This document shows positions 49,218-60,599 of a stretch of DNA of 64,000 bases, in pieces (positions within the stretch are counted from its first letter, which is position 1; every line of letters starts with the position of its first letter). Under the pieces are notes generated by a model. The model had not been told where the DNA came from. It did no database searches and worked only from the letters and a program-made list of their open reading frames with translations. Location of the stretch: positions 248,001 to 312,000 of the forward strand of contig CAXBME010000006.1 in NCBI GenBank assembly GCA_963976765.1. The letters are read 5' to 3'. This DNA is from an uncultured Planctomycetaceae bacterium. Its GTDB lineage: Bacteria > Planctomycetota > Planctomycetia > Planctomycetales > Planctomycetaceae. Position numbers and translations under genes: made by a program.

Positions 49218-49255
49218 AAAAAAGCCTCATTACCGGTTTTCGGCAATGAGGCTTT
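49218..49255 (-). terminator. Intrinsic terminator downstream of the tRNA-Asp 3' fragment
   Basis: Minus strand AAAGCCTCATTGCCG-AAAAC-CGGTAATGAGGC-TTTTTT. Confidence 0.85.
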
Positions 49256-49259
49256 GAAG

Positions 49260-49306
49260 CGACCCCGACGGGACTTGAACCCGCAACCTCCGGATCGACA
49301 GTCCGG
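49260..49306 (-). pseudogene. 3' fragment of tRNA-Asp(GTC), probable att site
   Basis: Minus strand CCGGA-CTGTCGA-TCCGG AGGTT GCGGG-TTCAAGT-CCCGT CGGGGTC G gives the anticodon arm, T arm, 3' acceptor strand and G73; no D arm or 5' acceptor strand upstream. Confidence 0.88.
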
Positions 49307-49945
49307 AAACAGACTATGAGCACCGGAGAATGGTTCCGGGCGTCAACGCTTTCAGCAAGTGCGGTGCCATTCCCATCCGCGGGAATCTGAGCCACTCAAC
49401 AGCCACTGTCCAGCATGTTCCGGGATTTCAGAATTGACGACCTGTTTAGGGTCGCTAAGTTCGCCGTCACGAGAAAAGTCGACGAGCCACGAGACACAAC
49501 GCTGAGACCCGGTTGCTTCCGGGAGAGTTGACCAGGCATGGTCGCTCGATCTTCAGTCGCGGTTGACCGGTTCGTCAAGCAGATGAATCGAGTCCCGCTG
49601 ACGTCCTGCTGTTGAATCCATGAAGCTGTCGGTTGCAGTGATTCTGTGGCCACCGTTTTGTGAATTTCAGCCCGCTGTCGTTTGCTCGACTCACACGAAT
49701 TGCGTCCCTCACTTCAGATTCCGCCAGGGATCACTCGTGAGGTATTTGCTGGCCGACATCGTGGAAGTGTGACAGGTCTTGCACTCAGGATCTGCGTGCC
49801 TTCACTGCATGGTTGCCCGCACAGTTATCACGTGATCAGGAGCGGCGACGCATGTTCGCTAATCGGATGGAGTTTCCAGGTATTCACAGGTCGACGTTGA
49901 TGGGGGATTTTCCCACGGCGTTTATCTACACCAATGGAGGCTCAA

Positions 49946-51103
49946 ATGACGGCACTGAAGATCTTTTCCGGCGACGACGAAAGTCAGTCCTGGCGTCGAT
50001 TGTTGAATCTGCCGCCCAATGCGTATCTGCGGCTGCGGGAATACTACGAACGATTCATGGAGCCGGCTCCGCAACGTCGCAAGTTCAGCAGGTCAACACC
50101 GCAGGCGTACCTGACGTCAATCGGTCGCTGGGAACAGTTCGGGACCTCCGAGTTGAAGCTCTGGGAGACGGATCAGTTTGGCCGAATGATGTGGAAGCCA
50201 CTGAATTCACAGACTCCGCAATCAGTGAACGATCCACCGATCGGGATTGTCATCGACGACGATCTGGTCGCATTCCAGAACGCGATGCTGGACGCCGGGT
50301 TTCCTGTGTCGACGGTCAACACCACACGCCGCCACCTGCTGCCGATCTTCAATCTGGCGGCGCCTCGCAGCGAGCGCGGTGCTGGCCGTGGAGATTTGCT
50401 GGTCCGTCCATTCTGTCCAATACTCGACGAAGAAGTTGTGCAGAAGCTGATTCCCACCGAGGAAGAAATGACGGCCTTCTTCAAAGCGACTTCTCAGGCG
50501 AAGTGGCCGATTTCGAACGACTGGCCAGCGTCTCACTGGTGGCAGGCGTTGATTGTGCTGCTGTGCAACTACGGGCTGGGTTGTGCGGACTGGAAGCGTC
50601 TCGAATGGGACGAACACGTCATCGAGAACTGCTCACTGCTCAAGTATGTCCGCTACAAGACTCGAAGAAAGCGGAAGCACCCGGTGCTGTTCGAGATCAA
50701 TGCGACGACCAGGTGGTATCTGAATCGGATTCGATCAGAAACGATGATTCGAAATGGCAAGTCCCGGATCTTCTGTTCGGCACAGTCGAAGACCTGCTTC
50801 AAAAACGAGTGGAATCGTCTCGTCGAACTGGCGGGAGTCTCCTGCAAGGAGAAGAAGTCAGACGGCAAAACGTACGAAGAGTTCAGCCGCCATGCGATTC
50901 GTCGATTCTGCAATCAGTACATGAACGATCATGCTCCCGGCAAGCCGGGAGAGTGGCTGCTGAACCATGCCTTCACGACAGACAACGTTGTGAATCATCG
51001 CAGTTACAGTCGCATCTATCAGCCGCCTCAGAGCGTGACGGATGCACTGCACTCGGTCGAGCAGCTGCCGATCTTCCTTCAGACGATGCAGGAGGCGGCG
51101 TAG
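49946..51103 (+). CDS. Tyrosine recombinase/integrase-family protein with atypical box I
   Basis: SD GGAGG; core-binding STVNTTRRHL, box I YGLGCAD..L.W, HAIR (HxxR), LLNH, candidate nucleophile Tyr in HRSY. Confidence 0.8.
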   Translation: MTALKIFSGDDESQSWRRLLNLPPNAYLRLREYYERFMEPAPQRRKFSRSTPQAYLTSIGRWEQFGTSELKLWETDQFGRMMWKPLNSQTPQSVNDPPIGIVIDDDLVAFQNAMLDAGFPVSTVNTTRRHLLPIFNLAAPRSERGAGRGDLLVRPFCPILDEEVVQKLIPTEEEMTAFFKATSQAKWPISNDWPASHWWQALIVLLCNYGLGCADWKRLEWDEHVIENCSLLKYVRYKTRRKRKHPVLFEINATTRWYLNRIRSETMIRNGKSRIFCSAQSKTCFKNEWNRLVELAGVSCKEKKSDGKTYEEFSRHAIRRFCNQYMNDHAPGKPGEWLLNHAFTTDNVVNHRSYSRIYQPPQSVTDALHSVEQLPIFLQTMQEAA

Positions 51104-51237
51104 GCGGCTCACGTGTGAATCCAATGGAAGCGTCGGAACCGCGAGCGTCGGCCCACGCTCGCAGCGACAGAGCAGGTCAGGGTTCATCCTCTTCATGCCT
51201 CCGGCCTGCTCTGTCTTCGTTTTCCCGGAGTAGTGTC

Positions 51238-51396
51238 ATGCAGAAGTTCATGCGTCACGCGAGGCTCTGGCTGTCACTGCCCGTGCATCTGATAGCGTTG
51301 ATTTTCTTTGCCATCGCCACGGGAGTGATGGCCTTATCGGAACTGATCGCCGCATCCAAGCCGCCACCTTCCAGGAAGCAGGTACAGGCGGAATGA
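51238..51396 (+). CDS. Small membrane protein
   Basis: GGAG upstream of ATG; hydrophobic segment LSLPVHLIALIFFAIATGVMAL; also forms the 3' end of the long 49852-51396 frame. Confidence 0.5.
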   Translation: MQKFMRHARLWLSLPVHLIALIFFAIATGVMALSELIAASKPPPSRKQVQAE

Positions 51397-51504
51397 CCGA
51401 CCACTGATCCGCCGCTTTCAGTTTTCTCAAGAAATCAATGACCTTCTGCGTGGAACGTACGCGCACAGTCAATCTTCTTTTCCAGGTATCAGGAGTGCTT
51501 TCTG

Positions 51505-51687
51505 ATGTCTTCTGCGTTTGAACTTGGCGACTGGCTGCGGATTCATGAGAGGCGAATCAGTCTGGCCAAGGACTTGATTCTGGCCAAAGAGACGGGAACG
51601 CCATCGCAATTGAGAACCAGTTTTCAGGGGTTGCTGACTCGCTGTTCGAATCGATCGGCGATGGATGTGCGCTTCAGGCGGAACTGA
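51505..51687 (+). CDS. Hypothetical phage protein
   Basis: AGGAG SD, 60 aa, co-directional with the early operon. Confidence 0.55.
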   Translation: MSSAFELGDWLRIHERRISLAKDLILAKETGTPSQLRTSFQGLLTRCSNRSAMDVRFRRN

Positions 51688-51810: not shown

Positions 51811-52092
51811 ATGCTGGTGGTCACTCGATCGGAAAACGAGACGATCCATATCGGAGAACTGATCGACATCACGATCGTCGCGGTACGTGGCAACAAGGTT
51901 CGAATCGGAATCGATGCGCCAAGGCTGTTGGCGATTTTGCGAGGCGAGCATCTGACTGACGAATCGCTTCTGTCCCGCAAAAAGCTGATTCAGCAAATGA
52001 CATCAGCCGTCGACGTTGAGACCGGTCGACTGGTCGAACTACTCGCCGCAAGTCCGGTCGGTCAGGCCGCCGGAATGGAGGCGACCGCATGA
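51811..52092 (+). CDS. csrA: Carbon storage regulator CsrA homolog (element-encoded)
   Basis: MLVVTRSENETIHIG..I.ITIVAVRGNKVRIGIDAP...ILRGE; RNA-binding Arg6 and the Arg44-equivalent are retained. Confidence 0.88.
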   Translation: MLVVTRSENETIHIGELIDITIVAVRGNKVRIGIDAPRLLAILRGEHLTDESLLSRKKLIQQMTSAVDVETGRLVELLAASPVGQAAGMEATA

Positions 52093-54053
52093 TTTCCGTC
52101 GGCACCGAAATCTACATCCGTCCCGAACACGGTATAGACGGCGCTAGCGGAGCAATCTGGGGCAGACTGACTGTCTCCGAAATGGGCGAGGTCAGTCCTG
52201 GCCAGTGGATGGTCGACTTGAGCCGTCGTTGCCAGGACGGTGTGATCCGCCGAGTCGTCAGCGGACTGCCATTTCCATTCACGGCTTCAGCAAACGGCAG
52301 ACGCAGTGACGGCACCTCGAATGTTGCCGCCGCGAATGCGGAGTTGCAGCGGAATAATCCGCAGTTGAGCATTCAGCTGCAGCGGTTCCGCGAACTGGCC
52401 AAAGATCGAAAGGAACTGCGACATGCAGCTGCCGACGCTGAATCATCTGATGCACACGATCGGCAACACTCAGCTCCAGGCGACCTGGTGGTGTCTCGAA
52501 CACAAGGTCTGGCAACGAATGGATGCAGCCGAGTTCCTGTTGGGCCATCCACCGAATCGGACGATTCCGCAGGCCACGTACGACCTGTGGCTGAACGGGA
52601 TTTACAAGGAGTACGTGGCGACGATCAAAGCTCAGTCGCAACTCTGGCAGCCGGGCACGTCGTCATCGTTGACCTGATGAACGTGCTGGTGGCGGCGTAT
52701 CACGTCGGGCAGAAAAACCAGGTTCATGCGGTGCGGAGCTTACTGGGAACTGTGCGGCAACTGATCGAAAAGCTGAAGCCGGAAACGCTGCTGTTTGCGG
52801 CGGAAGGCGGCCATGGTTTTCGGCGAAACATCTTCCCGGAATACAAGGCGACTCGACCGGAAACCGAGCCGCTGCTGAAAGATCAGATCAAGCTGGCTCA
52901 CGACGCACTGACGGCAATCGGCTGGCCGGTCCTGTCGTCAGCCGGTTACGAAGACGACGACGTACTGGCGACAGTTGCCGAGCGGTGCAAGGCGAACGGT
53001 GTGCCATGCACTGTAGTGACCACTGACAAGGACATGCTTCAGCTGCTGCCCATCTGCCGGATTTATCACCAGCAGAAAAAGCGACTCGTCACCAGCGACG
53101 ACGTTCAGAAAAAATACAACATCGGTGCCGGCCAGATGGGCGACCTGCTGTCACTGTGGGGCGACAGGATCGACAACGTACCTGGCGTGCCTGGGATCGG
53201 GAAGGTCAAGGCGGCTGAACTACTGAACGAGTTTGAGAATCTCGACGCCATACTCGTTTCAGCCATCGCCCACGATCACGGCAAATCGTCGATGTGGGCC
53301 AAACTGAAAGAGCATCGCAAACAAGCCCTGCTCAGCCGACGGCTGGTTGACCTGCAACACAACGTTCCACTTGCGGACGGCTGGCAGGTTGCGCGAGCCA
53401 TGCAGCCGCGAGGCACATGGGTCGACTCGCTGCGAGCGATGAGTCTGGGTGCCGTCGTCAACGGTCTTAGTGACGCGTTTCAATCGGCTGGCCAGTTGCC
53501 AGCATCACAGCAAGAACCTCAAAGGAGTGACGGCCATGCCGACTTATTTTCCCGACGACCTGCAACGTCGAGCCGAACTGGCAACGAGACGCGATCAGAT
53601 CAAACGCACGCTGCTGATTCTGGGCGTGTGGCAGACGTGGATGATCGATCCGAAAACGGCGTGCAGGCATCTGGGATTGCCGGTCAAGTCGGACCAGAAA
53701 CCAGAGCAGCTTCACAACCTGTTGAGCGAGTTTCAGCGGGAGGTGAGAGGCCAGATCCAACTGACACAGTCCGTCCAGCTTTCATTGGAGCTTGTGTCGA
53801 TCTGGGTTTCGAACTGACCGGCGGTCCGGATCAATTCAACAACTGGACAGCCACATATGCCGGCCAGCGATTCATCCTGCATGGGCATCCGAAGTGCCAG
53901 CAGATCACAGCCATTGACACGGGAAACAGTCACCCCCTGGCGGAGTTCAAGGAGCGAGCCAATGCGACGACGTCCGAGACCAGACCCACATGGTCGCCCA
54001 GCGGCGAGCTGGCTGAGGATCCAGCCCAACCACTGGCACACTCAAATTGCTGA
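52089..54053 (+). CDS. Long ORF containing a central 5'-3' exonuclease (PolA-N/FEN, PIN + H3TH) domain
   Basis: VIVD, FRRNIFPEYKATR, GYEDDD, TDKD, GDRIDNVPGVPGIGKVKAAELL; nuclease domain about 52650-53380; true extent of the gene uncertain. Confidence 0.8.
   Translation: MISVGTEIYIRPEHGIDGASGAIWGRLTVSEMGEVSPGQWMVDLSRRCQDGVIRRVVSGLPFPFTASANGRRSDGTSNVAAANAELQRNNPQLSIQLQRFRELAKDRKELRHAAADAESSDAHDRQHSAPGDLVVSRTQGLATNGCSRVPVGPSTESDDSAGHVRPVAERDLQGVRGDDQSSVATLAAGHVVIVDLMNVLVAAYHVGQKNQVHAVRSLLGTVRQLIEKLKPETLLFAAEGGHGFRRNIFPEYKATRPETEPLLKDQIKLAHDALTAIGWPVLSSAGYEDDDVLATVAERCKANGVPCTVVTTDKDMLQLLPICRIYHQQKKRLVTSDDVQKKYNIGAGQMGDLLSLWGDRIDNVPGVPGIGKVKAAELLNEFENLDAILVSAIAHDHGKSSMWAKLKEHRKQALLSRRLVDLQHNVPLADGWQVARAMQPRGTWVDSLRAMSLGAVVNGLSDAFQSAGQLPASQQEPQRSDGHADLFSRRPATSSRTGNETRSDQTHAADSGRVADVDDRSENGVQASGIAGQVGPETRAASQPVERVSAGGERPDPTDTVRPAFIGACVDLGFELTGGPDQFNNWTATYAGQRFILHGHPKCQQITAIDTGNSHPLAEFKERANATTSETRPTWSPSGELAEDPAQPLAHSNC
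52423..52677 (+). CDS. Hypothetical protein nested (+1 frame) in the exonuclease ORF
   Basis: GAAAGGAA SD 7 nt before ATG; globular-looking composition where the host frame is low-complexity. Confidence 0.5.
   Translation: MQLPTLNHLMHTIGNTQLQATWWCLEHKVWQRMDAAEFLLGHPPNRTIPQATYDLWLNGIYKEYVATIKAQSQLWQPGTSSSLT
53536..53817 (+). CDS. Hypothetical protein nested (+1 frame) in the exonuclease ORF
   Basis: Strong SD AAAGGAG 8 nt before ATG; resembles the 52423 ORF by eye. Confidence 0.55.
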   Translation: MPTYFPDDLQRRAELATRRDQIKRTLLILGVWQTWMIDPKTACRHLGLPVKSDQKPEQLHNLLSEFQREVRGQIQLTQSVQLSLELVSIWVSN

Positions 54054-54264
54054 CGCCGGGAATGGTCTGCTGATTGACTGCCCAACGCATCACTGCGACG
54101 GGCAGATTTTTACGCTGGCCAGACCGGGACACGATGGCGCGATGATCGTGAGTTGCAGCACCTGTTGCCGGAAGATGGCGGTGATTCTGGTCGGCTGGGA
54201 ATCACCGGCCCCCGCATCACGCGGAGTGAAGCCACCGACTGAAGACGAAACGCTAGGGACTTAA
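53962..54264 (+). CDS. Small putative zinc-ribbon protein
   Basis: AAGGAG SD; CPTHHC...CSTC; overlaps the exonuclease ORF tail by 92 nt. Confidence 0.55.
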   Translation: MRRRPRPDPHGRPAASWLRIQPNHWHTQIADAGNGLLIDCPTHHCDGQIFTLARPGHDGAMIVSCSTCCRKMAVILVGWESPAPASRGVKPPTEDETLGT

Positions 54265-54266
54265 CC

Positions 54267-54866
54267 ATGCCTCGAAATATGAGCTTTGCATTGACCACCG
54301 ATCAGTTCCGCGCTCGGTCGAAGACGGTCACACGACGGATCGGCTGGGCATTCCTGCAGCCGGGCGATCAGGTCATGGGCTGCGTCAAGTGCATGGGCCT
54401 GAAGCCGGGAGAGAAAATCGAAAGGCTCGGCCTGATCGAGATAGTTTCAGTCCGCCGCGAGCCACTCCGCCTGATGCAGGTCGACGAGCATTACGGCAAA
54501 GCAGAAGCCGTCAAGGAAGGCTTTCCGGAAATGAACGGAGCCGACTTCGTTTCCATGCTCTGCAACCATTCGAGCAAACCCGCCGACACTGAGTTTAACC
54601 GCATTGAATTTCAGTACCTCGCTCCGAACGGCGAGCCAGTCTCCGACGAGATTCCTTGCCGCCTGCTCCGATTCAATCCTCGCCGGGCCGCACGCGGCGC
54701 GGAGGCGGCTGAGGTTGAGATCGGCAGCGACGTGCTGTGGATGAGTCGTCGGGATATCAGCCGCAACATCACCGAGTTCGGCCCATTGCCAGGCCTGCTC
54801 GCTGCGCAGTCGGCGTACAACGCCGGAGTGGATTACCCACCCCGGAACACCATGAACCAACCATGA
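54267..54866 (+). CDS. ASCH domain protein with C-terminal extension
   Basis: MSFALT, KTVTRR.GW, SVRREPL, EGFP, RIEFQY resemble phage ASCH/PUA-like proteins. Confidence 0.7.
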   Translation: MPRNMSFALTTDQFRARSKTVTRRIGWAFLQPGDQVMGCVKCMGLKPGEKIERLGLIEIVSVRREPLRLMQVDEHYGKAEAVKEGFPEMNGADFVSMLCNHSSKPADTEFNRIEFQYLAPNGEPVSDEIPCRLLRFNPRRAARGAEAAEVEIGSDVLWMSRRDISRNITEFGPLPGLLAAQSAYNAGVDYPPRNTMNQP

Positions 54867-54877
54867 GGACTGAGACT

Positions 54878-55225
54878 ATGAAAGACACGGCAACGTTTGA
54901 GACATGGGCGATCGTGGACGTGATGGGCCATCAGCGGTTTGCTGGCTATCTCACGGAGCGGACAATCGGCGGGAAGGCGTTTCTGCAGATCGATGTGCCG
55001 GAAGTATTCGGCAAACAGGCAGCGTTTTCACGAATTCTTGGCCCGGATTCGATCTACGCCATCCAACCGGTCACCGAGGAAGTCGCTCGCGACATCGCAC
55101 GCGAACTCAAAAAGAGTCCACTCACCGAATGGGACTTCACGCCAGAGCTGCGTGAGACGATCAAAGCCGGACGGCGGCTGCTGAGTTCCTCACCGCCGCA
55201 AAGCGTCAGGGATAATGATTCTTGA
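54878..55225 (+). CDS. Conserved phage-type hypothetical protein
   Basis: WAIVDVMGH.RFAG...E...G..FLQIDVP...SIYAI.P.TEE pattern, recalled from phage proteins; GAGG SD. Confidence 0.7.
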   Translation: MKDTATFETWAIVDVMGHQRFAGYLTERTIGGKAFLQIDVPEVFGKQAAFSRILGPDSIYAIQPVTEEVARDIARELKKSPLTEWDFTPELRETIKAGRRLLSSSPPQSVRDNDS

Positions 55226-55248
55226 TTGACTCTGAGAGTGAGGCGAGT

Positions 55249-55273
55249 GACGCATTCGTGCGTCGTTTTTTTT
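55249..55273 (+). terminator. Intrinsic terminator before the replication gene
   Basis: GACGCA-TTCG-TGCGTC-G-T8. Confidence 0.8.
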
Positions 55274-55318
55274 GAGTCATCAGTGATGTTCAAAACTTGT
55301 TGAACACGGAAGTGCAAC

Positions 55319-56635
55319 ATGAGTCATCCGGCGAGTAGTTACCCGACAGAGCGACGGAACTGGACCGTTGACGGGCGGAGAAAAATCTTTGCTCTGACGT
55401 TTCAGCGACTGCTGATCAATTCGCAGGCCATCAAGGATCTCGGATTCGAAGGCATTCACCTGCTCACCAGAATTGTTCTGATCGAAGACGAGTTGCGGCA
55501 CAGCCAGCCTGTGAAGATGTGGAACACGGAGGTCGAGCACCTGCTGGGGCTGAAAGTCGATGCTATGCGTCGAGTCCGCCAAGCCTGCATTGATCACGGC
55601 TGGCTGCACTACGTCCCCGGCCGGAAGCGAAAGATCGGTCAGTATTGGGTCACCATTCCCGACGAAGCCGTGCGTGACGAGTGGTTGAATGACGACGCAG
55701 GCGAAGAAATACCCCCGCCCGTCAGCGGGGTAAAGCCGACGGAAAGCCAACACAAAGCTGACGGAAAGCCAACACAAAGCCGCACACCTTCTATTCCTGT
55801 ACCTGATCCAGAAAACTCCTCCTCCACCGTTTCCGATTTCGAAAGCGGTGGAGGAGGAATTTTTGAAGATGATGCCAACGAATCAGCCGTGTCTGAGATG
55901 CTGGCAACGAAACCGGTCGAGTCCGGTTCCGGATCGACAGCCGTGTCTGTTGATTCATCGCGGGATGCGTCTGCCGAGTCGGACGCATCCACAATGGTTC
56001 CGCCCGTGTGCGGAACTGACGAGGTGGCGATCGCCGCCACCATCGAGCGTGTGAAGTCCGAGCACTTCACGAACAGTCTGGCGGCGGACAGGTTCGGCAA
56101 CCGTAAGTTCGGCCTGGCTGACCAGGCAGTCAGAACAGCGATCGCCAGAGGTCACACGACGGCATCCGTCGATGCCATCTGTGATTTCGTGGAATCGCGA
56201 CCCGGCTTCTATGGGGCCGGTGCGGTGTATGTGCGTCTCACGACTGAGGCGTACGTGACTGACGAGCCGCAAGATTCCTGGGCAACGCCAGATCCGGTGG
56301 CGTTCGCAAAATGGAAGCATCGACGGGAGCAGGAAGCCCGCCGAAAACAAGACGCAGCGGCGACAGTCCTGTACCAGCAACGAAAAGAGAAAGAGACAGC
56401 ACCGCTGGTGCAACTCGAAATTCACTGGCCGGCCATCGAGAAGATGAGCACCGATGAAATTCTTGTGATGCTGGCTGGCGAATCGCAAACGCGGAGATAT
56501 TTCACCCGATCAAACTACGATCGGAACGCACCGATGATTCGGACTCGGCTTTTGAAACTCTATGCGGCACAGCAGGAAGTTGTTCACGCGAAGTCCCGAA
56601 GTCCCGAAGAGCAGACTCAAGAGGCAGTCACATGA
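55319..56635 (+). CDS. Putative phage replication initiator (N-terminal winged HTH)
   Basis: LLGL...MRRVRQACIDHGWLHY.PG....GQYWV wHTH-like N-terminus, then a low-complexity linker carrying direct repeats. Confidence 0.6.
   Translation: MSHPASSYPTERRNWTVDGRRKIFALTFQRLLINSQAIKDLGFEGIHLLTRIVLIEDELRHSQPVKMWNTEVEHLLGLKVDAMRRVRQACIDHGWLHYVPGRKRKIGQYWVTIPDEAVRDEWLNDDAGEEIPPPVSGVKPTESQHKADGKPTQSRTPSIPVPDPENSSSTVSDFESGGGGIFEDDANESAVSEMLATKPVESGSGSTAVSVDSSRDASAESDASTMVPPVCGTDEVAIAATIERVKSEHFTNSLAADRFGNRKFGLADQAVRTAIARGHTTASVDAICDFVESRPGFYGAGAVYVRLTTEAYVTDEPQDSWATPDPVAFAKWKHRREQEARRKQDAAATVLYQQRKEKETAPLVQLEIHWPAIEKMSTDEILVMLAGESQTRRYFTRSNYDRNAPMIRTRLLKLYAAQQEVVHAKSRSPEEQTQEAVT
55732..55786 (+). repeat. 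Five tandem 11-bp iteron-like repeats
   Basis: AAAGCCGACGG AAAGCCAACAC AAAGCTGACGG AAAGCCAACAC AAAGCCGCACA. Confidence 0.8.
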
Positions 56636-58206
56636 CGAAAAAGTCGCACGCTGTCGGCGACAGGCAATTCATCGGGCTCGAGAGGATCAAACCGAGCCCG
56701 TACCAGCCTCGCACTTATTTCGACGCAGACAAGCTGGCCGAACTGGCAGCCAGCATGAAATCGTCGACACAACTAACGGACTGCCTGGTCCGCGTCTCGC
56801 CGGGATACCGGGGAGCGGGAACGCCTGAGTCCTTCGAACTGATCGGCGGTGAACGCCGGTGGCGAGCCGCAAAGACCGCCGGCATCCGGGGCGTCTGGTG
56901 CCGGGTGATCGAGGCCGATAATCAGCTCGCTCAACGACTGGCCACGTTTGACAATCTGGACCGTGAGAACCTGACGGAAGTTGAGAAGCTTTGGGCATTC
57001 CGTAAGTTGATCGATCGCGGGGCTTGTACTCAGAAGGAGCTGGCGGCGGAACTGAAACTCACACCGGCGGCGTTGAGCAATCGTCTGAGAATTCTGACGG
57101 TGCCTGCCGAGTGGCTGGATCGGATTTCTCAAGAAACTTACGGGCTGTCGACAACTCATCTTCGCAGTCTGGTGCCGTGGATCAAACGCGAGAACGTGCT
57201 GGCGATGGTGTGGGCGGACCTGCAGGCCGAAGCGAGTAAACACGGCTCGGATTGGAAATGCACAGTCGCCGAGTTCGCGGGCATCGTGCTGTACGCGGTG
57301 AAGAAACTCAGTCGGCCACTGAAGGACGGCGAACACATCGTCCGACTGCCGGGCGTGAAGGTTCATGGTGATGTCGATGTCGCTCTGACTCCTGCACAGC
57401 GATGTGACAACGAACTGGACTGCGTCTCGGTGAAGCTGGATCCCGATGGAGGGAAAGAGAAGCGAGCCTTCAATGTCGAGTTATGGGAGACGTTCCAGCT
57501 TGAAAGCGAGCAGGCACAGAGAGCGGAATCGAAACCGTCTCCAGCGAAGAAATCGGAAGTCGCCGAAGAAAGACGGGATGAGTTCCAGCGAAAGCTCTAT
57601 CGCTGGAAGCTGACGCAACTGCAACGCATGATTGTGGAGAGATTCGAATCCGTGTCAGGGCCGATCGATCAGCAGAATGTTCCGTTTCCGGAAATCGTCC
57701 AGCTGCACCTGCTGTGGTTCGCCTGCCACGGTGATTCAAGACAAACCAACGCGAGAAGCGAAGACCTGGCCGATCCTGTCAGCGAGGCCGGCGGCAGAGC
57801 TATCCGTCACGGAGGCCAGATTTTCAATCCAGTGAGTGTCTTTGAGACACTCGACACGATCGCCGCCGGCAGGGAGCATCGCAACAAAGTGTTCCGTGCC
57901 GTGGGTCTCTGCCTGGCGAACTGGTGGTCTGCCGATTTCGAAGGTCCACGCCGTGGCGTGACGCCGGCAGCGATCGAATGGGCCGCCGGCCAGTTTGGCT
58001 TCGATGTCTGCTCTCCGTGGCGACTGACTCGCGATTTCCTCTCACTGTATTCGGTAGCTGGCCTGAAGACTCTGGCGGATGAATGGGCGCACGCCTTCGA
58101 CGCAAAGACTGCCGGGAAAGAGTCGATGATCAATGAACTACTGGATTGGTGCGACGAAAAGCCTGCCCCGCAATCACTCGCAAAACTGAAGGCGATGGAG
58201 CTGTGA
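56632..58206 (+). CDS. ParB/RepB/Spo0J family protein with long C-terminal region
   Basis: PSPYQPR..F, GGERRWRA, NLDRENL, HTH TQKELAAELKLTPAALSNRLR. Confidence 0.88.
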   Translation: MTKKSHAVGDRQFIGLERIKPSPYQPRTYFDADKLAELAASMKSSTQLTDCLVRVSPGYRGAGTPESFELIGGERRWRAAKTAGIRGVWCRVIEADNQLAQRLATFDNLDRENLTEVEKLWAFRKLIDRGACTQKELAAELKLTPAALSNRLRILTVPAEWLDRISQETYGLSTTHLRSLVPWIKRENVLAMVWADLQAEASKHGSDWKCTVAEFAGIVLYAVKKLSRPLKDGEHIVRLPGVKVHGDVDVALTPAQRCDNELDCVSVKLDPDGGKEKRAFNVELWETFQLESEQAQRAESKPSPAKKSEVAEERRDEFQRKLYRWKLTQLQRMIVERFESVSGPIDQQNVPFPEIVQLHLLWFACHGDSRQTNARSEDLADPVSEAGGRAIRHGGQIFNPVSVFETLDTIAAGREHRNKVFRAVGLCLANWWSADFEGPRRGVTPAAIEWAAGQFGFDVCSPWRLTRDFLSLYSVAGLKTLADEWAHAFDAKTAGKESMINELLDWCDEKPAPQSLAKLKAMEL

Positions 58207-58295
58207 CCGCTACGTGACAAACAGCCACCTTTGATCGATTGAATGGATTATCTACCACTCGCGCCGTTCTGATTTCATTCAAAGGATAGACAACC

Positions 58296-59072
58296 ATGGT
58301 GTGTGCTGCGAAAACGCTTCCTGAGCCTTACTACGAACGCGACGGAATCCGGATTTATCACGGAGAGTCGTTTTACATTCTCGACGCCCTGCAGGGCCTG
58401 TCGGCAATCGTCACCGATCCGCCGTACTCGTCCGGCGGAACATTCAGCGGTGCTCGTGTGCAGAGTACTGTCTCGAAATATGTGCAGAGCGGCACTGTCC
58501 GTCGCCTGCCCAACTTCAGCGGAGACAATCGAGACCAGCGGAGCTTTCGGTTCTGGTCGACTCTCTGGCTGACGGCAGCGTTTCACGCCACGGTGCCCGG
58601 TGCCGTAATCTGTTCGTTCATTGACTGGCGGCAGCTGCCGACGCTGACTGATGCCATTCAGGCCGGCGGCTGGACTTGGCGAGGTGTCGGCGTCTGGTCG
58701 AAGGGATTCGGACGCCCGGGCCCGAATCGATTCAGTTCAGCGTGTGAATATCTGGTATGGGGTTCCAACGGTCCCATGCCGAACGAAAAACAAGACGCGG
58801 TTTACCCGTCCGGGATCGTCGAATGTTCTGTGGCTTGCGGGAAAACGAAGCTGCACATTGCTCAGAAGCCCGACAAGGTGGCGGAATGGTCTTTGTCGAT
58901 CGTGCCACCTGGCGGAACGATCTGCGATCCGTTCATGGGTTCCGGTTCAACGCTGGTCGCCGCTCGCAAGCGTGGCATCAAGGCCATCGGAATCGAATGC
59001 GACGAACAGTCGTGCGAGGTCGCGGCAAAACGAATCGACGATCAGATCACCAGCGAATGCGCTGATTGTTGA
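58296..59072 (+). CDS. Orphan DNA methyltransferase (N6-A/N4-C, beta class)
   Basis: TDPPY precedes H.AQKP and DPFMGSGST, GIE. Confidence 0.92.
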   Translation: MVCAAKTLPEPYYERDGIRIYHGESFYILDALQGLSAIVTDPPYSSGGTFSGARVQSTVSKYVQSGTVRRLPNFSGDNRDQRSFRFWSTLWLTAAFHATVPGAVICSFIDWRQLPTLTDAIQAGGWTWRGVGVWSKGFGRPGPNRFSSACEYLVWGSNGPMPNEKQDAVYPSGIVECSVACGKTKLHIAQKPDKVAEWSLSIVPPGGTICDPFMGSGSTLVAARKRGIKAIGIECDEQSCEVAAKRIDDQITSECADC

Positions 59073-59966: not shown

Positions 59967-60155
59967 TCAATCGACCTTCAGTGATTTCAGGCCGACGGCG
60001 GCGGCGAGTCTGGCCAGGTCGGCCATGCGTGGCTCGCGAGTTTTATTCAACCACGTCCAGACGGTCCTCTGATCGCGTTCAATCAGCAGCGCGACATCTG
60101 AGACCGTCAGTTTTTTCTGCTCACGACGGGCGTTGATCTGGTCGACGAAATCCAT
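59967..60155 (-). CDS. XRE/Cro-family HTH regulator
   Basis: RREQKKLTVSDVA..I....RTV..W....REPR...L..LA..VG; SD GGGAG lies inside the end of hicB. Confidence 0.85.
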   Translation of the reverse strand: MDFVDQINARREQKKLTVSDVALLIERDQRTVWTWLNKTREPRMADLARLAAAVGLKSLKVD

Positions 60156-60158
60156 CGG

Positions 60159-60386
60159 TCACGCTCCCTGTCCCTGTGGAGCGTACAGGTCATAAGCGGC
60201 AGCTGGTGACGGGATTGACTCCCCATCTTCACGCATGCCGGACAGGTGCAACTCGATCGCCTCGCGGATCAGCGAGGCCGCTTCTTCCCGCGTTTTCCCG
60301 ACGGCGACACAGCCGGGCAGGTCAGGGACGTAAGCGCCCCAGTCACTGTCTTCCGACTTTTCGATCACGATCAGATACTGACTCAT
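60159..60386 (-). CDS. hicB: HicB-family antitoxin (short, no DNA-binding domain)
   Basis: Y.IVIEK...WGAYVPDLPGCVAVGKTREEA...IREAIELHL.GM..DGE.IP.P. Confidence 0.92.
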   Translation of the reverse strand: MSQYLIVIEKSEDSDWGAYVPDLPGCVAVGKTREEAASLIREAIELHLSGMREDGESIPSPAAAYDLYAPQGQGA

Positions 60387-60407
60387 TTCTACCAACTCCC
60401 CGCCGGC

Positions 60408-60599
60408 CTACTTGAGGCCGGCCTGTTTCAGAATACTGTTGAGTGTTCCGGGCGGCAGAACACTGTTTGGCTTGCCGGCCACGGTGACACGCCCCGACTT
60501 CGTCGCGTGTTTGAACTGACGGTGACTGCCTTTCTGAGCCACCAGCATCCAACCGTCATTGTCGAGCTGTTTCAGAATGTCCCGCACTGTCGTCGCCAT
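60408..60599 (-). CDS. hicA: HicA-family toxin (mRNA interferase)
   Basis: DGW....KGSHRQFKH....GRVTV.......PGTL.SILKQAGL; catalytic His in GSH. Confidence 0.93.
   Translation of the reverse strand: MATTVRDILKQLDNDGWMLVAQKGSHRQFKHATKSGRVTVAGKPNSVLPPGTLNSILKQAGLK

Follow-up and report, generated by a model that had tools for sequence, protein, structure and literature searches.

A second reading frame kept open across a family of Planctomycetaceae prophage integrase genes is probably translated for the sake of translation

In an uncultured Planctomycetaceae bacterium, the integrase gene of a prophage lies entirely within a second ORF on the same strand, and the absence of stop codons from this second frame is shared by many related integrases. 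The frame is real and conserved, and it is probably translated for translation's sake. We consider it reasonably probable that it represents a translation-only bridging or escort ORF of a temperate phage, which would carry ribosomes across the integrase gene to the genes downstream; its translation, termination and coupling we infer from sequence. All positions given without a contig refer to the window, i.e. the whole stretch of 64,000 nucleotides that was analyzed.

The bridging ORF extends on the forward strand from an ATG at 49852 to the first in-frame stop, a TGA at 51394–51396 (49852–51396, 514 codons), and an AGGAG motif at 49838–49842 precedes the ATG with a 9-nt spacer (duplex energy –7.0 kcal/mol). 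Relative to the recombinase/integrase gene (49934/49946–51103), the ORF is in the –1 frame; it encloses the whole gene, as described in the original prediction. Across the recombinase coding sequence, the –1 frame contains no stop, the +1 frame 17, and the three frames of the reverse strand 7, 16 and 12. Codon permutation yielded an expectation of 15.7 stops in the –1 frame and synonymous permutation one of 15.4, and not a single sequence without any –1 stop was obtained by either procedure (0/200,000 shuffles each). The hand counts of the original prediction for the first 50 recombinase codons should have read 9 codons ending in T and 12 beginning with GA, AA or AG instead of 8 and 13. T|A junctions are depleted genome-wide in the host, and adjusting for this avoidance lowers the expectation at the window locus to 10.2 stops (P0 = 3.6e-5). 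Among non-overlapping windows of 389 codons each from host genes, 3 of 3,467 were free of –1 stops. The earlier statement that off-frame ORFs in host genes reach at most about 250 codons has to be corrected, since –1 runs of at least 250 codons occur in 51 of 4,748 called host genes, and six genes, including the one in the window, reach at least 389 codons. Taken alone, the window locus is rare but not unique and only suggestive, and the case is carried by the homologs. A repeat search of 49250–51600 returned only short repeats at chance level. As a separate observation, a recombinase-like gene at G000:C42:7007-8500, judged from its N-terminus to be a serine recombinase, has an open –1 run of 408 codons, with a few stops at the ends of the gene.

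To place the locus in its family, a profile from 39 proteins was used, which matched in 96 of 301 genomes of the host's family and, at a stricter cut-off, in 11 of 401 genomes of the phylum, all but one of them in the host's family. The family-genome matches retained were mostly those at about E 1e-44 or stronger, L085 lay outside the frame scoring, and 76 distinct cores covering at least 250 model positions, from 83 loci, were scored. Including the window, 41 of the 76 cores have no –1 stop and are called open here, compared with 1.0 expected after junction correction. Pooled over the open cores, 0 stops were found against 304 expected, whereas the 35 closed cores contain 252 against 275 expected. 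The +1 frame was open in none of the 76 cores, and none of 28 other tyrosine recombinases of the same genome (of 33 matches, those with at least 250 codons) had an open –1 frame. At 50% identity, 28 of 44 clusters were open versus 0.9 expected, with no mixed clusters, and on a quick tree the open or closed label changed 6 times compared to 25 times when shuffled, with the open state found across deep branches. The closest relatives, L003 (42% identity) and L004 (38%), carry 10 and 12 stops in their cores, and L066 is closed as well; stops that would refute the original prediction are thus present in the two nearest homologs but not in the family as a whole. The L003 element has ParB and methylase in common with the window prophage, indicating together with the other closed relatives that some phages can do without the frame. 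Around G284, a search at the genus level produced no further open locus.

These data also decide on the reading that the open frame arose by chance or as a side effect of biased codons and codon junctions in a GC-rich genome. The genome-wide depletion of T|A junctions and the six host genes with runs of at least 389 codons are in its favor, as is the open locus L034, which expects only 0.5 stops. On the other side stand the excess of open cores over expectation, the 22 of 41 open cores that expect at least 7 stops, L020, which at a GC3 of 0.40 expects 17.8 stops and has none, and the frame-specific start and stop signals described below. For the family, chance was rejected on the count of open cores, and with the low P0 of the window locus we regard this reading as hardly credible.

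Two groups among the closed loci deserve a separate description. The 11 recombinase-like proteins of L070, L071, L074, L075 and L077–L083 cluster tightly in one clade, with short branches, and this clade has lost the open frame; in these proteins the first catalytic Arg is replaced by Asp and the His by Glu (11 of 76 in that column), and they are possibly domesticated recombinases, either non-catalytic or altered. L044, L045, L050, L055, L056 and L031 are closed-frame recombinases in tandem pairs, several of them coupled by a stop/start overlap.

The second frame was maintained over more than one substitution per site, which raises the question whether a protein is being preserved. A true overprinted protein could be a low-constraint, Arg/Ser-rich or membrane-tethered polypeptide, or a long linker between short functional ends. 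Besides the persistence of the frame, omega values of 0.5–0.6 at some non-overlapping ends (L035/L036, L041/L057, L042/L060) and a few alignment columns above simulation (top z 4.6 among 252 columns) agree with such a protein, as does the small gene to which the second ORF is fused in frame in the window and in L035, L036 and L054. However, at the other ends omega was 0.9–1.1 (mostly 0.5–1.1 in well-aligned pairs overall), and change was roughly equal at all three codon positions; the short ends may be under weak constraint. Among pairs below 40% integrase identity, the –1 products of open pairs were about 1 point more identical than in a simulation by synonymous shuffling; the excess in mixed (0.4–0.8) and closed pairs (0.3–1.6) was similar. 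Synonymous sites of the integrase drift freely in close open pairs, with pS ranging from 0.32 (L035/L036) to 0.72 (L018/L020), and neither purifying selection on a second protein nor a reduction of synonymous change in the integrase was detected in these comparisons. The second-ORF product matched no Pfam and no PHROG family, and an Atlas search with the 514-aa product returned no score above 0.80; its matches were mostly integrase SAM-like clusters, which are a shadow of the main frame, and gave no usable lead.

The original prediction of a hydrophobic, TM-like segment at the end of the ORF was accurate as far as the segment itself is concerned (Kyte-Doolittle mean 2.26 over 19 residues). Yet a TM-like tail occurs in only 3 of the 41 open loci, and in the window it has an SD and ATG (51238) of its own, which, with the lack of constraint on the product, makes a membrane-anchored protein unlikely. 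As query, the 52-aa membrane peptide was not found among 200 other genomes of the host's family. Exchanges between elements give a similar picture of frame without fixed content: L009 and L020 have both flanks in common while their integrases belong to different clades at different tRNAs, and the frame is open throughout; L042 and L060 have the 3' flank in common with distant integrases, and the frame is open across the exchanged part. Overall, the comparisons showed no apparent constraint on the product beyond that forced by the integrase, and the absence of stops alone appears conserved. Of the proposed overprinted gene, the notion of a frame under selection that looks like a translated overlapping ORF is retained, whereas a conserved, disordered and membrane-anchored protein is not supported; in any of its forms we consider an overprinted protein unlikely.

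Start signals in front of the integrase are specific for the –1 frame. In a fixed stretch of 300 nt upstream of the integrase start, 27 open representatives contain SD-led ATGs 21 times in the –1 frame, 6 times in the integrase frame and 3 times in the +1 frame (p = 4e-5), while the corresponding numbers in 14 closed representatives are 2, 2 and 7. The second ORF started a median of 53 codons upstream of the integrase (about 30–65) with a slightly stronger SD (p = 0.046). In a survey of all loci with usable N-terminus (40 open and 26 closed), 29 of the 40 open loci had a good SD for the integrase itself. In the window, the integrase SD, GGAGG at 49936–49940 (–9.3 kcal/mol), lies within the bridging ORF, and the database protein P0001 begins at the same ATG at 49946. 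Occlusion of the integrase start was no higher in open than in closed loci (p = 0.86) and was not supported as a trait of open loci; no marked C-over-G skew was found within the integrase (median 0.013).

The upstream start with its slightly stronger SD and the enrichment of SD-led ATGs in the –1 frame would also suit a second ORF that is translated chiefly to tune integrase output, in the manner of an overlapping upstream ORF, with downstream coupling being secondary. Repression of this kind requires just a short overlap at the integrase start, though, and leaves the avoidance of stops over the whole gene and for 28–265 codons beyond it unexplained; we therefore judge it improbable as the chief function. 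Programmed frameshifting that joins the two frames, either from the upstream start into the integrase or from the integrase by a –1 shift to the next gene, appears very unlikely, as each frame has an SD and ATG of its own. The integrases of L003 and L004 begin 85–100 codons upstream of the core (L003: 100), at about the position of the second-ORF start in open loci, which would fit a fixed frame fusion in these two sister taxa only.

Past the integrase stop, the –1 frame continues for 28–265 codons with a median of 86 in 37 open loci, compared with 16 for the +1 frame and 24 for host genes, and among 26 representatives it stays open longer than the +1 frame in 25 (medians 91.5 versus 17.5 codons). 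This survey covers 37 of the 41 open loci; L048 and L058 were left out as contig ends, and so were L057 and L063, in which the –1 frame closes ahead of the integrase-frame stop, by 49 and 14 codons, respectively. The –1 stop overlaps the ATG of an ORF of at least 40 codons in 14 of 37 open loci, versus 2 of 37 for the +1 frame and 356 of 4,711 host genes, but this overlap alone is a modest signal because the first –1 stop overlaps such an ATG in 7 of 33 closed loci too. In open loci, the next SD-led gene begins a median of 256 nt after the integrase stop, and a gap of at most 30 nt was found in 1 of 37 open versus 12 of 29 closed loci (of 35 closed loci, 29 were kept for this comparison). Where this gap exceeds 60 nt, the –1 frame spans it in 25 of 35 open but only 3 of 16 closed loci. 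In 27 of 37 open loci the –1 frame comes as close as 40 nt to the following start or passes it, and in the remaining 10 more than 40 nt separate its stop from the called next gene. Lineages without the frame tend to have short gaps behind the integrase, and in L003 the integrase stop overlaps the next ATG.

In the window, the –1 frame crosses a spacer of 134 nt behind the integrase stop (51104–51237, forward strand) and then runs in frame into a probable small membrane-protein gene of 52 aa (51238–51396, forward strand), which has its own SD, GGAG at 51227–51230; the ATGA at its end starts merely a 4-codon ORF. Behind the membrane peptide, a short ORF without Pfam match is located at 51505–51687, and the 108 nt preceding it lie outside the bridging ORF.

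Across 39 leaders (650 nt each) upstream of the second ORF, a promoter-like pattern built in this analysis matched 11 times between –337 and –457 and 5 times at other positions. In the window, the candidate site (TTGACG...TAAGTT, 49434–49461, forward strand) is situated 418 nt upstream of the ATG at 49852, while a scan with a stricter promoter consensus found no match in the window leader. The putative untranslated leader of about 390 nt (49462–49851, forward strand), positioned by comparison with relatives, folds unremarkably (z = –1.37) and contains one terminator-like hairpin (49631–49651, forward strand), where 2.9 would be expected by chance. In four loci of genus g58 (L009, L011, L018, L020), a promoter-like site precedes the second ATG by about 370 nt, and the leader is non-coding and conserved among them. 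Eleven other loci share another conserved leader, in which a 5' hairpin covaries and which is described by model R1 (for example L024:971-1151 and L053:1445-1633). Model R1 matches 13 open loci, 11 of which are the training set, has no strong match at closed loci, and among 151 genomes matches strongly at these integrase loci only. It has no match in the window leader, where only the promoter-like site is found at a like distance.

An Rfam search of 20 loci at gathering score returned only tRNA matches and no IsrK, CI or C4 family, and the same was true for tRNA as sole match type in the window region at E values up to 1. Pairing of the leader with the ribosome-binding site of the ORF was seen in one consensus fold of four sequences, but the family as a whole does not share a pairing with the second-ORF start (17 of 38, p = 0.84 versus swapped-leader controls), and leader-to-RBS pairing as a general rule was not supported since it did not exceed these controls in the 38 loci. 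Clustering of upstream ORFs revealed XRE-like ORFs, labeled so from reading their sequence, on the same strand in L033, L054, L059 and L068; in the window, no XRE-like divergent repressor was found upstream by this approach.

The enclosed integrase (49946–51103, forward strand, 385 aa) matches the integrase family phrog_1 (E 4.9e-5), and its structure model (pLDDT 90.8) has the λ-Int core-binding and catalytic fold, with λ Int (PDB 1z1b) as best Foldseek match (E 2.3e-6). It shares about 15% identity with the λ-type enzyme and has no Pfam match. The complete catalytic set of tyrosine recombinases is R-K-H-R-H/W-Y. In the window integrase, the K, H-x-x-R, H and Y are present, but the first catalytic Arg is Gly, so the set is incomplete. 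Among the 76 cores, this position is Arg in 64, Asp in 11 and Gly in the window copy alone. Because of this exchange the prophage may be unable to excise and may thus be grounded, although its structural genes look intact. No relatives of the integrase were found in viral contigs, and metagenome contigs contained a single identical copy (L095), which leaves no relative close enough for a direct dN/dS comparison at the window locus.

The left end of the prophage in the window is marked by an att core at 49257–49306 (reverse strand), which repeats 50 bp from the 3' part of tRNA-Asp(GTC) and has an Rfam tRNA match below gathering score. An identical copy (50/50) at G000:C22:24649-24698 lies inside an intact tRNA-Asp (c24651-24725), and upstream of this tRNA contig C22 carries terminase, portal, protease-capsid and tape-measure genes. 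The att repeat at tRNA-Asp and the structural genes on C22 indicate that the element is most likely a single tailed prophage, at least 43 kb long, whose sequence is divided between two contigs, with the join itself deduced. Insertion at a tRNA 3' end with duplicated core is again λ-like, and a tRNA gene lies within the fetched flank in 22 of 41 open loci. In contrast to the λ-type integrase, the gene in the window is nested in a second ORF and heads the early-gene strand, being the first large gene in front of putative early or replication genes recognized by Pfam and PHROGs (CsrA-like, 5'–3' exonuclease, ParB-like and DNA methylase; 51811–59072, forward strand). A phage CsrA-like gene follows closely behind the integrase (51811–52092) and has homologs in L112, L113, L116, L117 and L118; a translational regulator of this type, encoded in the operon, might influence the two competing starts. 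Where the early region ends, a small XRE-type HTH gene with a HicA/HicB pair occupies 59967–60599 (reverse strand), and this HTH gene is the only repressor-like gene in the window part of the prophage.

Three known arrangements invite comparison, Gifsy-1 and P4 as the closest in logic and Thermus rnpA as the closest in geometry. In the Salmonella prophage Gifsy-1, the isrK-orf45-anrP operon begins with a 5' leader RNA followed by an upstream ORF, orf45, the DNA of which is conserved while the protein varies (PMC4825925). The stop of orf45 overlaps the next start (AUGA), translation of orf45 is required for the next gene, and in one species both are fused (PMC4825925). Here, too, the stop of the upstream ORF overlaps or abuts the next gene in the family, and in the window the ORF continues in frame into the small gene that follows. 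However, orf45 as described there is short and encloses no gene, whereas the ORFs found here span about 390–700 codons from stop to stop and enclose a whole integrase gene, and no Rfam family except tRNA matched the 20 loci searched.

In satellite phage P4, translation of kil plays a role in leader control. The P4 immunity leader (seqA, CI RNA, seqC) keeps the early operon under premature termination (PMC4825925). In the present loci, early-operon expression may likewise be governed in the leader by premature termination tied to translation, but no CI-like RNA was found by Rfam in 20 loci, pairing of the seqA/seqC type was not above controls in 38 loci, the element is a full tailed prophage, and the nested gene is an integrase. 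The bridging logic would resemble Gifsy-1 orf45 and the P4 leaders at about ten times the length and would work like their leader-ORF control, outside the same class for want of a homologous RNA family and with different scale and nested cargo. A fully nested gene on the same strand is found in Thermus, where rnpA starts upstream of rpmH and encloses it out of frame (PMC9841429). In that case, a single SD serves two start codons separated by 4 nt, the enclosed gene is small, and the product of the outer ORF is a known protein. In the loci described here, the starts lie about 30–65 codons from each other, each with its own SD, and the product of the outer ORF appears unconstrained.

Under the bridging reading that we prefer, ribosomes starting at the upstream ATG would cover the stretch of about 1.5 kb and then reach the next gene, so that the early operon would be expressed independently of integrase translation, which we assume to be poor in open loci. 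The integrase region would thereby be spared Rho-dependent polarity or decay, the principle of Rho polarity being outlined in PMC12360218; rho is present in the host genome. Passing ribosomes would compete with initiation at the integrase, and the ratio of the two starts would set integrase versus early-gene expression. More speculatively, the conserved leader of about 350 nt might gate initiation of the ORF and act as an RNA-level lysogeny switch. It is conceivable, if doubtful, that a dummy ORF of 400–700 codons is selected only for openness and that a single RBS behind a leader RNA chooses between the integrase and the lytic early operon, which would amount to a lysis–lysogeny switch without a classical divergent repressor.

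To our knowledge, bacteria and their phages offer few cases of long nested ORFs on the same strand that have real evolutionary support. A literature search that mostly covered sources other than subscription journals found no description of an integrase nested in a long bridging ORF. The frame described here is conserved open over 28 independent integrase clusters, and its losses serve as natural controls. Stops were purged while residues remained free, a signature that tells selection on translating as such apart from selection on the encoded protein and offers a clean test whether an ORF of kilobase scale can be selected for its translation alone. The case is a warning, too, that conservation of a frame is by itself no proof of an overprinted protein. 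For the prophages of this poorly known bacterial family, the finding points to an unstudied regulation of integrase versus early-gene expression.
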